Source: Pseudovirgaria hyperparasitica
Lineage: Eukaryota
Direction: 5' to 3' (one strand)
NCBI GenBank assembly: GCA_010093815.1
Contig: ML996577.1
Length of the DNA stretch: 64,000 nt
A program made the position numbers and the translations under genes. Positions 20,275-61,917 of this stretch are shown here, piece by piece (position 1 is the stretch's first letter; each line of letters starts with the position of its first letter). The notes under the pieces are model-generated. The model was given only the letters and a program-made list of their open reading frames with translations, was not told the origin of the DNA and did not search any database.

Positions 20275-23200
20275 CTAGCTGTCACTGAAGAACTCGTCCC
20301 CGTTGAATCCTTCCCGTGCCGGCTTCCATTTCTCGATCAGCCGGATCGGAGTCAGCGTGATCAAGCCAGAGTATTGCTCAACTCGAGCAATCTCGCATTC
20401 CCATATATCTCCAGCTTGTGGCCTGACTTGATCAACATTGGGATAAACCGTCCGACTGATGTCGCATCGAGGGTCCATCATGCTTGCGTGAAGCTCAAAT
20501 TCTCTGACGGAGACCTGGATCTTCTGAACTGTTATCAAGTTCGTCATGACCATGCACGTTACAATACGTGGGAACTCTGGACACTCGTTGAAGTGAAGCG
20601 CGCGCCGCACTAATTCCCTTTTCCAAAATTTTCCATATCCACCATTCAGCATCGATATCTGCTTAATGCGAGCCGCGACGCGGACGAGTCCACTCTCCAA
20701 CGTTTCTTGACTGTAGGCAAGACCCGTCACTGCTGCGGGCATCTGGGCGAGACTTTTGCCAGCTCTAGCTTCTGCTCGGAGCGCGGATTCTATTTGCCAG
20801 TGCGCTATCATGTCTGCATACCGACGAAGCGGGCTTGTCACATGAGTGTATGCGTCTGCGTTTAGACCAACGTGAAAGACTGGTGTGGTCGATATGTATG
20901 TTCGCCCAATAAAGTCCGTTGACTTGACTGAAACATGTAAAGGTGGAATCCCATTCTCATCAAGCGAAGGCTCCCATACATTTTTGACAAAGCGTTGGAA
21001 CTTTTCCTGATCCGCATATGGATGTGTGCCGCGAAAATACAGCGGAACATTCCGGTCCCGTGCCCAGCGTGCTCCAATGGTACATGCGGCGACCATACTT
21101 GTCTCAACGATGGCTTTTGCAACATGGCCCTTGTCTCCGTCGCCAATAGGGGCGTATTGCGTAGACCATGGCCTTGAACGCATTTCAATTACCGGGTCCC
21201 CCTGCGAGAATATTGCTCTGTCTGGCTGTGTTGATGAGTTTGGCAATGGCTGTCCAGTGCTTGACGAAACGTTTATCGAGTACAGATCACAATTGACGAA
21301 GGTGGACCTCTGGAATTGCTTGCTTTGGTTTTGAGTGGCCTTGTCCAGGGCTTCAGCGACGTTCCACAAAGCCTGCAGATCTTTGACTTGAGAAGGACTG
21401 AACTTTGTCTGCAAAGGACGCGTTACCTTAATCTCTGGAAGTGCGCCGCCAACAGTCCATTTATTTGGAAAAATGCTTGGGTGCCCGCCCAAAGTTTCGT
21501 CAACAGCATGGCGCGTGGTCAAGATGACGTTCCGAATAATCCCAGGTTGAACCTTACTCTCCAGAATCGTTCCACTGCTATCAATTCGGCCACTAAAAGT
21601 CAAAACCGGTCGATTCGACTGGAGACTGAACCAGCCTTGTGTAACCCATTTGGGCAACAATGGCACACTGTGCGACCCAGAATATACAGTCTGTATCAAG
21701 TGGCCTGCCAGTCGCGCCAGAATATGATTTCTTGGTATGAAGGCCGTCGGGTTGGCTACATGCACATGAAGCCACCACTGTGCAGTCGCTCCTCCCTCGA
21801 TTACTTCCACCGATATGCCATCGTCAATCTCTGAAGCTGATGCGTCATCGATGCAGTAAACAGGGAGCTGTTCCCAATCCTTTCGCAGATCTGCCATCGT
21901 ATCGACCAGGTCCTTCTCGTGCATCTCTGGATGAGAAGCACTGGCAGACGCACTATCAATCAGATTTGAATAACCATATCCGGGCAGCATAAGACTCGGT
22001 GTGAAATTGTGGTGATCCTCGTAAGTTGTTAAAACTCCAATTTCTTGGAGGAATAAGAACACCGTAGCGACCCCAATATTATGGCCATCGTACCTCCCAA
22101 CTTCGTGCATCAGGGTCGGTAGGAGAGCTGCTATATCTTGTTTTGCGTAGGTTGATCGTTCTACAGCGTACGAACGTAGCGCTCTGATTATGAGGCGTTC
22201 ATTGCTGTCAAAAGTGGCCTTTACAACGCCTCTTTCTACCGGCAAAGGTTTGTTCGCTGTCTGTCTGAGTTTGCTCGGACCCAGCCCACCCAAAATCGGG
22301 ACGGCACCGAAGGTTATATTGGAAGGTGACCTTACTGAACGACTATGAGAGACCAACCCCTTGGCTTTGGTGACGAACCTTTCAATGATTGATACCCCTG
22401 GAGGGGCTAATTGTGACTTGTTTCCTGAAGCCTGAGAAGCACGCCACGTCTTGTAGTTGCGGATCCAGCTTATAACGGTTTCTATCTCGGTCAAATTTGC
22501 TTGCGCTTTAACATAATACTGCTGTGTCATATTGAAGGTGGAATACGAATAGTCAATGCCCGAGCCTGCTCTTTCGAGTGCTAGATGAACTGCGGAGAGT
22601 TGCTCAAAGCTGTTGTCTGCATGTTCTTCCAACAGATACTTGATAGCCTTATCAAGTGACCAGATCTTGTCTTCAGTAGGATGTGCGAGAAGTTCGTACG
22701 CAAAATCCAGTCGGCGGTGGTGTTCCCGGTAGATGTCAAGATATCTTTGTCTAAACGCCGAGAGCGCTTCAAGCATGGGAGCGCAGACTGTCAGAGAAAC
22801 ATGGGAGGTGTCTTTCTTCTGGACGTCTAGGTAATGCGTATTCGGCGCATCTACTGAAGACTGATTCATGATGGTCATACATGACTTGACTTTCATCACT
22901 TCATCCTGGCTGACGAATGCAGGGTATCGAAGTAGGATACTACCGAGGTAGCAATCTATGATCGCCCCCTTCGAATTCAGAAATTTGCCATGGCCTGTAT
23001 CTCCTGGGGACACGTATATGGCCGCAACAAGATCATTGGCGGGGGATCGAATCTTGTTACTGAGAAGTTATCAGCAACTATACATGATATGAATGGCATG
23101 CGGGGCTTACGGAAGCATGCATAGATCACCAGGCTGTACTTTTGAGGCAAGACTTAGACCAGAGCCATAGATATCTTCTACCTCGTCCGGGTCATAATTT

Positions 23201-23710
23201 ATTGCCATGTATCCGTCTCTCTCGTCTGCGGCTTCTTCTTCCATACCTAATTGGGCCGCTGCATTCGCATCGCCCAGCGCAGGAATGAGATTCTCGAGGC
23301 ATTCCTCCGCATTCGGCGTACCGTTTTGTTCTTGCCATAGCTTCAATTGATCGCGAATTCCTTGCGGGGGCGGACCTTTGGGGTTGTGCGTTGATTGGTC
23401 GTGCGTCGACTGTGCCAGCTACACATATCATTAATATTGTACCAAGGGATCAAGAATATCATGTTGAGAATACCGATGTGGATTGACTGAACGCGAGCGC
23501 AGGCTGAGATTTTGGTATGGTCGAGGAGGAGTTATATTTGCGCAAGCGTGTAGGTCTTCGCCCACGTTCTGGGGACGTCGTAATTGCCCGGCTCTGTAGC
23601 AATCGTCTCGAGCGATATGCGCTCTTTTGTAGGCCAGCTGTCGTAGAGACGACGGTTCTCGAAACGCAGGCCCAGCAGAACCTTGGGAACTCACTACTAG
23701 GGCTCAACAT
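20275..23710 (-). CDS. DSS1: Mitochondrial exoribonuclease II (RNB family; cyt-4/DSS1 homolog); introns ~23419-23473 and ~23060-23110
   Basis: LRKDW..VYCIDDASASEIDDGIS catalytic motif, HVHVANPT, YTHVTSPLRRYAD; R/S-rich N-terminal presequence-like region. Confidence 0.9.
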
Positions 23711-24068
23711 GGCAGAGGTTGTAGCTCCCTAGGTAATTATTGAAACAGGCATACCGTAGCCTGTTGAGCAATCGTAGACGAAACACGCTGAATATCAATA
23801 CGGAAGATGGAGAAGGGAAGACAAAGACGTATTATAACAAGCACGAGCGCGTCGATTTGCCTCTGCCTGGTGCAATGACTATTCATGAATTTTTGAGCAC
23901 GGACCCGCACCGTCCTCCGAAACTCCGCATTTGCCTATTTATACAGACAGCATATTAATACACTTTACACAGTACTTTGCCACGCTTCAATCGCATTCCA
24001 CAACCCTTTTTGTTTATCTCATATTTTAGGTATGGAACACCCAGATTCTCTTCCTATGATCTTCCCAC

Positions 24069-24146
24069 ATGATGCGTTTATCATAGCATGTATTACCCGA
24101 AAGCAACCTTCATGGTTGCTCTGTGTGGATACTTCTACTTTTCTGA
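24069..24146 (+). ncRNA. Candidate intronic C/D-box snoRNA (SNORD45-like 18S guide)
   Basis: Box C ATGATGC 24069-75; guide TAGCATGTATTA 24084-95 complementary to conserved 18S UAAUACAUGCUA; D' CCGA 24097-100; perfect stem AGCAACC/GGTTGCT; box D CTGA 24143-46; lies in predicted intron 24030-24216. Confidence 0.75.
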
Positions 24147-24231
24147 CTCCCTTACGCGACGAACCAGTTCCTGTTACTGCATTTACACCACCGAATTAGT
24201 GCTAACCATCACATAGGACTGCTACTGTAAA

Positions 24232-24528
24232 ATGTCTATATCGAGCTCAGACACTCCATCTACCTATTTCACCATTCTGTACTTCGCTGCTGCATCGGAC
24301 ATCACCAAGAAGCGATCGGAGACTCTCACTGCTCCAGTCCACGTGTCCCAGCTCTTCACACTGTTGGACAAGAAATATCCTGGTCTTAAAGATAAAGTGT
24401 TGTGCAGCTCTGCGATCACTGTTAATCTTGAATATGTCGACGTCGATGAATCGATGTCAGATGAAGAGGGCCTAGTTATAAAGGCGGGCGACGAGGTCGC
24501 TATAATACCACCAGTTAGCTCTGGATGA
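24232..24528 (+). CDS. MOCS2A: Molybdopterin synthase sulfur-carrier (small) subunit, MoaD/ThiS fold
   Basis: ILYFAAA N-terminal motif; GDEVAIIPPVSSG C-terminus as in fungal CnxG. Confidence 0.93.
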   Translation: MSISSSDTPSTYFTILYFAAASDITKKRSETLTAPVHVSQLFTLLDKKYPGLKDKVLCSSAITVNLEYVDVDESMSDEEGLVIKAGDEVAIIPPVSSG

Positions 24529-24898
24529 AACCTCATATCGTCTCGCAACTTGGGAAAAGTGCTCAAACAAGTGCTACTAAGGTGCGACTGCCGTCGTCAT
24601 TTCATGTCCAGACCTCCTGACTGCACTGTGCAAAGGGCTGCAAGTAAGGTGGTATATTCAATCCGTAGGTCGATATTGTGTATGTAGATTGGGCATTGTC
24701 ATCGTCTTTACGCCATTCCTCAACAAAGCAGACAACGCACTCAACCCACGCTATGAGGAGCATACACTCCTTGTTAGTCATGTCATCTCCCAAATAGGTA
24801 ACATATTTGCCGCGTCTCACCAATTGAGCGGTAGCCAAGGCACATATGACAGGCTTCCAGGGGGAGAGGCCCATGCTTTGCACTATATACATCTGCAA

Positions 24899-26715
24899 TT
24901 ACGTCGCTTCCATCTTCTCCGTACTCTCGTTCTCTTTCGTCTCGATGTCGCTACCAGTTCCTACAGCCCTACTTGGTCTCCTGAACTCCGAATCATCGCC
25001 AAATCCGCCAGCCTTCTGAATCTGAATACTTTCCTTCACTGCTCCTTTCTTAAGGAACAGCCAATCGATCTCCTCAAGTGTGAGGTTAGTGGTTTCCGGA
25101 TAGCAGAAGTAAATGAGTGGAACGAAAGAGAAATTTAGACACATAAAAATAAGGTACCCTTTCCACTTCAGATTTTGAATCAGCGTAGGCGTCACCATCA
25201 CAACGAAGAAGTTCCACCTTGATCAAACCAATTAGCAAGCTTCATGTACCGCCGCCACATCGAGAAACTTACAGCCAATTACTCGAAATTCCAACCGCAG
25301 AACCTTTTGCTCTTACGTGCAAGGGCAGAATTTCGGGGACGTAGACCCATGGAATGCAATTCGCTGTCGCTCCGAATATGAGCATGTAAGTGAAGAAGAA
25401 AGTAATACTGGCGGAAGCCGTGGGCTTTTCAACCGATGTGCCGGCGAAACTCAACAGAATCGCAATGAGCATCATGGAGATGCCCAAGCCAAAGCTACCC
25501 CACATCATGGGCTTGCGTCTCCCCATGCGATCGAGGAAAAAGGTCGGGACCAGAGAGCCGAAGAAGAACATTGCGTTGATACAGCCCCCAAGAATGAGAG
25601 CCAGATTGCGGTCAAGCCTCACGTTATTCTGATGACATCAGCGCCAGCACTGTTTATGAGTCCTGGTCTCCCTTACCTGTAACACTGATATAATATAGTA
25701 CTATTCATGTGTCAGTAATCCATACACTTCAGCAGCTTAATGGTACTTACGACAACTAAATTGATGCCTCCCATTTGATTCATAAATTGCATACCATATG
25801 CGAGGAACACTCTGCGCCCGGTCTGTACATGATCACGCTTAAACAGCTCCGACCACTTGTACGCGCCGTTCTCCTCTTCCATGGCGATGGCATCCAGTAC
25901 TTCATTTTGCTCCTTGACAATCTTGGGCGCATCGGGTGGGAGATCATACACATCGCAAAGCACCTGCAGCGCTTCCTCATGCTTCCCATGCTTATACAAA
26001 TACCGTGGACTTTCCGGCAGCCCAAAGACCAACCCAATGACCACCTACACAGGCTATCAGTTCGCATCTCGATCGCATGATTGTTTCACAGACTCACAAA
26101 GGCAAAAATAACCTGACACGCAATCGGAAGCCTCCAAGCAATACTTCCCTCGGCAAAATTCATCCCGTAGTCAAACCAATACGCGATCTCGATTCCAACG
26201 CCCACAAACAGCGGCTCACTACTCACCAGCCGCCCCCTTTTCTCTGCCTCACACAGCTCGCTCTGATACATTGGCACCGTGCTCGTCTCGATGCCTGTGC
26301 CAATGCCCGTGATGAATCTTGCAATCATGATATGCGGTACGCTGAACGCACACGCCTGGAGAGCGCCGCCCACGATGATCCAGCACATGGCGATCCACAT
26401 AGCCAGGCGACGACCCGTACGCTCGCAGAAGATGAAGGACAGGATGCAGCCTGTGAAGCAGCCCAGGTTATAGATGGACACAATTATGCCTTCGAGGGAA
26501 GGGTTAGGGTGATTGAACTGGGCACGGAAGCTTTCGTTGCCGACGATGCCACTGAAAACTCCTTGATCGTAGCCTTTAGGGTATGTCAGTGGTTTGGTGA
26601 GATTGTGTAGGAAGAAGACGAGTTAGATACCGAAGAGCACGAATGCCATCTGGCAAGCGACAGTGATGGCAGCACGCAGCTTGAAGCCGCGACCATACAT
26701 GTTGAACTTGAACAT
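24899..26715 (-). CDS. MFS sugar porter, Stl1-like (multi-exon)
   Basis: FVLFG-YDQG, PMYQSE..RG.L, WRLPIACQ, PESPRYL, DRMGRR, PWVYVPEILPL, PET motifs; start at 26715 or 26700. Confidence 0.92.
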
Positions 26716-27106
26716 GGTAAACACAGCCTCAAGATGCGTTTCTGGGCTTATCGAACGCAAGGAGAATGTACAGCTTGCAGAGCGTAGGAGACGATGCTCG
26801 GAAGACTGCGACGAAGTTTGTACTGCCACAAATACAGGACAACAGTCGCCCTTAACACGAGACAGTTCGCCGGAATCGGGACCTAGCTATCCTCGCTCTA
26901 TCAATACCACGAGGCCATCGGAGATGGTGGGCCGTAAAGCAAGGGATTTACACGCCTTAATCTAAGTTGAATGGCGGATGCATCTGCAACGGCAAAAACA
27001 TCGCTCGGCTGACCTGCATCAAGTCGCAGCTCTGGTGAGCCACAACGTCAACCGGCACATTTGATCGCTCCGTTGCGCGGGTATCTTTCTACGGGATGGG
27101 GCGGGT

Positions 27107-60034: not shown

Positions 60035-61917
60035 TCAATCCTCCTCTTGGTCAACTCTCTTATATCCTTTGCTACTCTCTCCATCGCCACCTTTGCCACG
60101 GCTTACGAGATTAGAGATCCATCCGCCCAAACCCTCACCGTTATCGTTGCCCTTGCTGGATTTGCTTGTGCCGACATTTGGAGGGTTGATGTCGAGACCT
60201 GGAATCGCATGATCTGCCCCAAGGCCGCCTGGTAACGAAGGCACGGGAGATCGATTGCCACTAAATAGAGACTCTGCCTCCGCCAGAGTTGCTGGAGTAG
60301 GCATGGCGGTTGTGGCATCGCCAAACAAGGAATTCATATCCTCGAGACGAACATTTGCCGTTTCGGGATAAATGAACCATACTAGAGGAACATTAGTAAC
60401 CTGAGCAGGAGTAAACAAAATTTTGACTGACCAACGACGAAGCTGACTGCGCAGAAGAACGCGTGTAAGAGATAAAGTCGCCATTGGATCCACTCTTGCA
60501 GAATGGGTGTCATTTCACCGACCAGCCAGTTAAACGCCCAGTTTGTAGCCGTACTCAAGCTGGCACCCTTCGCTCTGATGCTCAATGGAAGGATCTCTGG
60601 TGGGTATAGCCATGGAATGGGTCCCCATGAAAACCCAAATGCGGCGTTGTATATCATAACAAAGATCACGACCATAGTCGGGGTGAAGCTAGCTTCCAAA
60701 TAGATGAAGTACGATACTGCAGATAGCGAGATGATCATCATGATAGCACCGCTAAGGAGAATAGGGCGCCTTCCAAGGGTGTCGACGACATACCATGGTG
60801 GAATGGTGGACGCGAAATAAGTAAGGGAGTTTATACCAGTCATGAGAATAGCTCTGCGGCCGACCCATCCTGCTTGTTCGAAAACAAGCGGAGCATAGTA
60901 GCTGATGACGTTTATGCCGTTTAGTTGGGCAAGCGCTTGAGCAGACATGGCGATGAAAACACGCTTCCGATAGCGCTTAAACATATCAGAATAAGATCGT
61001 TCTCCTTCCTGCCGTTGCAGAAGAACATTCATTTTGATCTCTCGATACTCGTCACGAGCTTTTGGATTGTGGATATCACCTTTGCCATAGAGGTTAGCAA
61101 TGACGACAATGCCCTCCTCGTCAAAGTCATTGTCAAGTAGCCATCTGTGAGGGTAAGCTTCTTATGTTTACGCAAGTACTTGGGTCCACATACCTGGGAG
61201 ACTCGCAAATGACCAAACTGCCCAGGGCCAGCAATCCACCCATGATACACTGCATAAGCAGAGGTACTCTCCACGACCAATGGCTTGGTATGAAAGTGCA
61301 GATATAGTCTACCCACACACTCGCAGCGTAACCGGTAATGTTGCCGGTGAACTCGATACATGCAAGCTTGCCGCGGTTGTGTGGCGGAGATATCTCCGAC
61401 TGGTAGACTGGAACGATTGTGGACAACGCGCCCACTCCCAGACCTGCTGTGATCCTGCCAAGGAGCATCATAGGCATGCCGTTTGCAAAGCTTTGCAGAG
61501 CTCCTCCGATTACAAATATTATAGCGCCGTATAGAATTGTACGTCTTCTTCCAATAACATCTCCAATTCTTCCAATGCATAGCGAAGCTATGAATGCACC
61601 AACCTCGAGGATAGCCACCATGGTACCAATTTCGGCTTTGGAGGGCTGGTCAAAGTAGTCTTTAAAATAGTGGCCACTGCATTGAGAACGTCAGCTTGAG
61701 AATGGCTTGCCCTTATCGGTGGTCACCTACGTGATGATGCCTGACATGACACCTTGATCGTACCCAAAGAGGAACACGCCCAAGGACACAAAGACGCTTG
61801 TAAAGTATCTGCAGTGATGAGTTAGCCACCTGCTCCTGTCTTGATATCAGGCTGTCCATACACCAGTTTTTTCCCATGTAGCCCGTGAATTCGGGACGGT
61901 CCATCGTTAGGCGCCAT
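60035..61917 (-). CDS. MFS monosaccharide transporter (sugar porter), multi-exon; true start may lie further upstream
   Basis: HGLHGKKL-YFTSVFVSLGVFLFGYDQGVMSGIITG, PVYQSEISPPHNRG, ESPRWL, WGPIPWLYPPEI, YPETA. Confidence 0.9.

Follow-up and report, generated by a model that had tools for sequence, protein, structure and literature searches.

A predicted intron-encoded box C/D snoRNA for 18S U167 in the 5′ UTR of a fungal molybdopterin synthase small-subunit gene

Introduction

The 64,000-nt stretch of Pseudovirgaria hyperparasitica DNA analysed here (the window) carries an unusually long intron directly ahead of a gene for the small subunit of molybdopterin synthase. What does this intron contain, and is it kept for its contents? 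A sequence-only reading of the window had answered with a box C/D snoRNA directed at the 18S rRNA and hosted by a gene of Moco biosynthesis.

An RNA of this kind would in itself be ordinary, since an intronic location is the rule in Neurospora crassa, where it applies to 45 out of 55 snoRNAs (PMC2780460). The assignment of the target is not new either, as a fungal guide for the 18S Um167 site was cloned in 2009. This RNA, N. crassa CD32 (EU780956), is 82 nt long and intronic, and carries a D′ guide for 18S-Um167 and a D guide for 18S-Am161, both of them predicted (PMC2780460). We therefore asked what the locus adds to this picture.

Results

The host intron is transcribed and spliced out, at exactly the coordinates that had been proposed for it. 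In contigs of two runs, one joint omits exactly 187 nt with GT..AG ends, corresponding to positions 24,030–24,216 of the plus strand, just ahead of the ATG. The 5′ splice site GTATGG (24,030–24,035) lies 40 nt 5′ of the TGATG of box C, and the branch-point motif GCTAAC (24,201–24,206) lies 54 nt 3′ of box D. The acceptor ends at 24,216, which leaves 15 nt between the intron and the ATG at 24,232. The two runs belong to one sample of one study, for which the library type is unrecorded; since all seven joints in the region 22,800–26,400 are intron-shaped, we take the contigs to be transcript-derived. The six other joints omit only 48–55 nt.

Spliced contigs start at 23,974 (X1) and 23,991 (X2) and are joined to the exon that follows the intron. 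They delimit a non-coding 5′ exon at 23,974–24,029 (plus strand), the true start of which may lie slightly further upstream. Neither the covered 5′ exon nor the 15 nt ahead of the start codon contains an ATG, so this spliceosomal intron belongs to the 5′ UTR. Its interior is covered by zero contigs, and the contigs are uninformative on small RNAs.

The reading frame downstream (24,232–24,528, plus strand) encodes a 98-aa molybdopterin synthase sulfur-carrier (small) subunit, MOCS2A/CnxG. The identity first given to this gene was upheld by the Pfam family ThiS (E 6e-9) and by its named relatives, which are molybdopterin synthase sulfur-carrier subunits or CnxG proteins of about 55–65% identity, nearly all from Dothideomycetes. 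The source organism is therefore probably a Dothideomycete itself. On the minus strand, a CYT-4-like gene of the RNase II family (20,275–23,849; RNB, WH_CYT4 and OB_cyt-4 domains), which is context only and not part of the snoRNA, is covered by spliced contigs up to 23,849. Its transcript contigs and those of the host gene stand head to head, 124 nt apart (23,850–23,973), and to judge from the sequence this layout leaves room for shared regulation. On the other side of the host gene, a convergent multi-intron gene (approximately 24,900–26,890, minus strand) reads like a sugar transporter when its ORFs are viewed by eye. Its contigs extend into the 3′ end of the host gene, which suggests overlapping 3′ UTRs.

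Within the intron, all of the proposed elements, like the donor and the branch motif, were found at their positions, each of them on the plus strand. Box C (ATGATGC, 24,069–24,075) agrees with RUGAUGA in six of seven bases and departs from it in the final one. It is followed by a 12-nt antisense guide to the 18S 5′ domain (24,084–24,095), one spacer base and box D′ (CCGA, 24,097–24,100). A 7-bp hairpin then separates D′ from C′ (24,102–24,120; its stem, 24,102–24,108/24,114–24,120, is formed in the computed fold). Further downstream lie a degenerate, C′-like word, GTGTGGA (24,123–24,129), and box D (CTGA, 24,143–24,146), with no conserved guide in the 15 nt before it. The predicted mature RNA of approximately 85 nt would span 24,064–24,148, its 5′ end being set 5 nt ahead of box C and its 3′ end 2 nt past box D, following the convention of PMC2780460. 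The distance from box C to box D is 78 nt, within the 70–100 nt expected of a box C/D snoRNA; a terminal stem was not predicted by folding. Box C, box D, an internal D′/C′ pair, an antisense element directly before D′ within the customary 10–21 nt and a spliced intron with constrained splice distances were thus all found together. Judged on its sequence, the element qualifies as a box C/D snoRNA on all features open to a conclusive test.

A check against known families did not back the candidate, as no Rfam family was matched anywhere in the window at the gathering score. The sole match by E-value in the region 23,800–24,400, Afu_264, had an E-value of 4.7 and lay off the element; it was rejected as a chance match.

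Might short motifs simply have come together by chance in an ordinary intron? The boxes are short, and the combined C..guide..D′..D pattern, with one match in the window and none in 100 shuffles, was derived from the element itself, which makes the shuffles a weak control. In the 35-Mb genome, guide plus D′ is present a single time, as is a reversed-pattern control, so that at genome scale the motif alone is not above chance. The full pattern was even matched 31 times in 596 Gb of prokaryote genomes. What speaks against chance is the company that the pattern keeps. We searched metagenomes with a pattern that combined the cores of box C and of the guide with D′ and D and made no use of the host gene. 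It gave at least 118 matching loci, with flanks of up to 2.5 kb for 80 of them and of 300 nt for the other 38. In 69 of the 118 matches listed, a MOCS2A ORF, recognized by a profile built from 120 related proteins, follows on the same strand 64–137 nt 3′ of box D; these represent 55 distinct RNAs. The expected synteny with cnxG is therefore present in relatives, and the same gene of Moco biosynthesis, with its spliced 5′-UTR intron in the window, can be regarded as host of the predicted snoRNA. Such conserved synteny at fixed splice geometry refutes a chance arrangement, the probability of which we consider next to nil.

The splice geometry is as regular as the choice of host. Among the 55 distinct MOCS2A-linked RNAs listed, a donor-like motif lies 33–57 nt 5′ of box C in 53 (one of the misses has only 23 nt of flank), and a branch-like motif begins 44–60 nt 3′ of box D in all 55, ranges that include the window's own distances. 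At random positions in the same loci 21% pass each of these tests and 5% pass both; the distance windows were chosen after viewing the data. Two bases that the pattern leaves free, and which lengthen the pairing with rRNA, are present in 43 of the 55 relatives listed vs. 1 of the 31 prokaryote matches, which served as the control set. One of these 31 controls itself carries the fungal-type snoRNA with a MOCS2A gene 88 nt further on. It lies on a 5.5-kb contig (L158/L180, G001:C295) of a metagenome-assembled bacterial genome, and the contig is probably a fungal contaminant.

The boxes and the guide core are invariant in the relatives by construction of the search, so variation can be read only at free positions. 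The last base of box C is A in 27 of the 55 relatives listed, T in 15, C in 12 and G in 1; the departure seen in the window thus recurs in 12 of them, and a like departure is found in N. crassa CD47 and CD51, as given in PMC2780460. Box D′ reads CCGA in 36 and CTGA in 19, though any second base was allowed. C′-like words, from a list picked after seeing the data, occur in 45 of the 55 vs. 4 of the 31 controls. The hairpin is weakly supported in the relatives listed, with a median z of −0.91 and z < −1.5 in 14 of 55 vs. 4 of 31 controls.

The listed matches without MOCS2A number 49. Seven of them end no more than 250 nt from box D, 3 of these with a CYT-4 neighbor, and the remaining ones, sorted by eye, include eukaryote-like snoRNAs and bacterial coding matches. 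Among 30 host proteins looked up, cluster members gave an organism name for 7: Alternaria, Paraphoma, Cenococcum and an unplaced Dothideomycete; Cadophora and Hyaloscypha; and Apiospora. These three groups represent Dothideomycetes, Leotiomycetes and Sordariomycetes, respectively; no named host is from Eurotiomycetes or Lecanoromycetes. Across these assembled loci, the MOCS2A host layout is conserved in filamentous ascomycetes of three classes or more.

Linkage as tight as this invites another explanation, since the CYT-4-like neighbor also recurs, in 15 of those 23 distinct related loci, among the matches listed, that extend 2 kb or more upstream. The motif might act in cis, as an intron or promoter element for the MOCS2A/CYT-4 pair, its likeness to a snoRNA being incidental. 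Such an element would predict neither the same guide in a snoRNA-shaped context away from MOCS2A, as found in L033, L091 and L126 and in eight LisH/CTLH loci, nor a second, unrelated rRNA guide right before box D, as found in 20 of the 55 linked RNAs listed. Both observations count against it and make it highly improbable, and we continue with a box C/D snoRNA as the preferred reading.

The loci away from MOCS2A deserve a closer description. L033, L091 and L126 share one sequence, a double-guide RNA of the CD32 type. Its setting is intron-like, and a long ORF is missing nearby. MOCS2A was not found downstream of them (2.5 kb of flank for two of the three), and their host is possibly non-coding. 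The same D′ guide was noted in apparent first coding introns of other eukaryotic genes (L022, L039, L040, L129, L041). In a further eight loci (L023, L056, L067, L071, L093, L101, L102, L128), the Um167 guide stands at the apparent D box of a double-guide RNA within an intron of a LisH/CTLH (GID8-like) gene, an assignment for which Pfam was run on one of the eight. At D′ they have the guide known from N. crassa CD14/U79, and the 5′ base of their Um167 guide differs from the ascomycete form. Presumably, these eight loci belong to Basidiomycota.

We then considered what the guide would pair with. Eleven of its 12 nucleotides are identical to the D′ guide of N. crassa CD32, and against the N. crassa 18S target shown in PMC2780460 it forms 11 Watson–Crick pairs; the Rfam SSU consensus agrees at this site. 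To this extent, the claim that the guide is the reverse complement of a conserved 18S sequence stood. The sole assembled 18S 5′ domain differs from the guide target at two positions, both RIP-type, and because of these changes it pairs with the guide over only 8 nt. The exact 13-nt target has zero matches in the source genome, and a search for further 18S 5′-domain copies in the assembly gave only the RIP-mutated one. Compared with a partial copy on C122, the assembled 18S-bearing rDNA shows 87 differences, 72 of which are CpA>TpA or TpG>TpA. To judge by this RIP signature, the assembled copy is not the functional one. As no intact 5′ domain is assembled, we infer the pairing with the species' functional 18S. 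The sole full rDNA unit in the assembly (L001/L003, G000:C40) is heavily RIP-mutated and unsuitable as an rRNA reference for the species.

In the assembled copy, the position selected by the D′+5 rule is U167 (Neurospora numbering). In N. crassa, 18S-Um167 is the predicted target of CD32, listed with the homologues snoR122 and U45A/B, and the same table lists no S. cerevisiae or S. pombe homologue for this guide (PMC2780460). The predicted placement of the methylation on the U of the SNORD45 site agrees with this listing. According to two further papers, human 18S-Um172 is a measured Nm site (PMC8677024), and the 18S of C. thermophilum has 33 Nm sites vs. 18 in yeast (PMC12723226). The accessible parts of the literature surveyed yielded no measured Um at the U167 site in a filamentous fungus, and those of the T. 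rubrum and A. fumigatus snoRNA tables hold no 18S site near 167. Human Um172 is taken to be the U45A/B site of the table in PMC2780460.

Pairing does not by itself imply methylation. The snoRNP might pair with pre-18S and serve chiefly to chaperone the folding of the 5′ domain, with little or no methylation. This would fit the non-consensus box C and D′ of the window's RNA and the status of Um167 in N. crassa, which is predicted and, in PMC2780460, not listed as mapped; the mark also seems dispensable in some fungi, as both yeasts have no Um167 guide listed there. However, the one-base spacer between guide and D′, which fixes D′+5 on U167, is common to CD32, and the cloned or northern-confirmed N. 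crassa RNAs CD32, CD47 and CD51 share such departures in box C. Plants and humans, moreover, have this site listed as a target of methylation, and human Um172 has been measured (PMC8677024). We thus hold a mainly chaperoning role to be very unlikely and retain the reading of a guide for 2′-O-methylation.

The other half of the RNA is more variable. In 35 of the 55 MOCS2A-linked relatives listed, the stretch of 15 nt leading up to box D shows no conservation, and in the window this sequence is pyrimidine-rich. Candidate rRNA targets for it gave best runs of 8 nt in the 18S and 10 nt, rich in G–U pairs, in the RIP-mutated LSU, and were rejected. The second guide of the 20 linked relatives mentioned above is of the U24 type and directed at the LSU; PMC2780460 assigns it to 26S-Cm1418 (N. 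crassa CD50).

We placed these RNAs on a MOCS2A tree of 66 rows and 97 columns (45 rows for complete-ORF loci and the window, 21 for named references). All 14 rows with the U24-type guide fall within one clade (support 99/94) together with Cadophora, Hyaloscypha, Ciborinia and Apiospora, and no guide-less row lies inside it; the window's own protein is unplaced. The predicted D-side guide differs by lineage: the window and Dothideomycete-type hosts have none, Leotiomycetes and Apiospora have one of the U24 type for the LSU, and CD32-type RNAs have one for 18S Am161. As the host is fixed, the locus offers a clean record of guide exchange. Guide switches as such have already been described for other fungal snoRNA families (PMC5824354).

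Elsewhere in the source genome, the U24-type guide occurs on the D side of another intronic snoRNA-like element (L162; G000:C20, approximately 61,335–61,400, minus strand). The Am161 D-box guide gave 7 one-mismatch matches vs. 27 for the reversed control; none was snoRNA-like by eye, and these candidates were rejected. A looser pattern gave 11 matches, one of the 8 viewed being CD15-like. An intronic element resembling N. crassa CD15, a guide to the 18S near A159–A161, lies on the minus strand at approximately 732,590–732,659 of G000:C15 (L174).

How does the window's RNA compare with known snoRNAs? With CD32, as described in the available part of its source, which leaves the host gene unnamed, it shares the intronic location, a non-consensus last base of box C, 9–10 nt from there to the guide, an identical 11-nt stretch of D′ guide, one spacer base, D′, a 7-bp hairpin, C′ and D. 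CD32 is a double guide, whereas the window's RNA has no D-side Am161 guide and so matches only the 5′ half. Canzler et al. 2018 (PMC5824354), in their main text, confine the CD_32 family (equal to Nc CD32) to Sordariales. On its predicted guides, the window's RNA does not count as CD_32 if that family is taken strictly as one of double guides.

For the equivalent 18S uridine, the guides listed in PMC2780460 are snoR122 of plants (RF02407) and SNORD45A/B of humans (RF00279). Two of the 20 related loci searched scored 27–29 bits against snoR122 and 24–25 bits against SNORD45, below the gathering scores of 36 and 42, and the window itself matched neither model. Window-type RNAs and snoR122/SNORD45 share a predicted target, which need not mean common descent. 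Three relatives with a U24-type guide, among the 20 loci searched, match U24/SNORD24 (RF00069) weakly and below threshold, two of them also matching snoR122 and SNORD45; in the window's RNA the U24-type guide is absent.

Discussion

Taken together, the element would be a single-guide, intron-encoded box C/D snoRNA that directs 2′-O-methylation of 18S U167, a reading to which we give a probability of about 0.9. The MOCS2A small-subunit gene would be transcribed with its non-coding first exon and 187-nt intron and then spliced. The core C/D proteins Nop1, Nop56, Nop58 and Snu13 would assemble on the C/D and C′/D′ motifs, while the lariat would be debranched and then trimmed, leaving about 85 nt of RNA, a step that we infer from what is established for snoRNA biogenesis and from the constant spacing to the splice signals. 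The D′ guide would then pair over 11–12 bp with the 18S 5′ domain in pre-18S, and fibrillarin/Nop1 would methylate U167. The D side would be without a target in the source species. The snoRNA is likely the reason why this long UTR intron has been kept across filamentous ascomycetes.

The additions made here are the conserved MOCS2A host, a wider taxonomic range and the swap of the D guide, each as predicted from the loci. The conserved host seems to be unrecorded: a link between MOCS2A/cnxG and a snoRNA was not found in the literature searched, a scope that lay outside most subscription journals, and in that literature snoR122 was linked with fungi only in PMC2780460. Some of the MOCS2A-linked RNAs may already stand under the CD_32 or U24 family in the supplement of Canzler et al. 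2018.

A more far-reaching idea is that the host is not passive. One short bidirectional promoter might serve a gene for a mitochondrial CYT-4-like RNase II in one direction and the Moco gene with its snoRNA in the other, so that Moco demand would tune 18S Um167 and, in Leotiomycetes and Xylariales, the U24-type LSU mark as well. We consider this regulatory coupling unlikely. If it were true, it would mean condition-dependent ribosome heterogeneity in filamentous fungi.

These findings leave the understanding of C/D snoRNA function unchanged. They fill a gap in annotation, as neither protein annotation nor Rfam reveals the RNA. They also bear on genetics: deletions of cnxG/MOCS2A that take the leader intron with them would also delete a predicted rRNA modification guide. 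By the same token, the locus would offer a single-copy handle on a methylation that is present in plants and humans and absent from the model yeasts.
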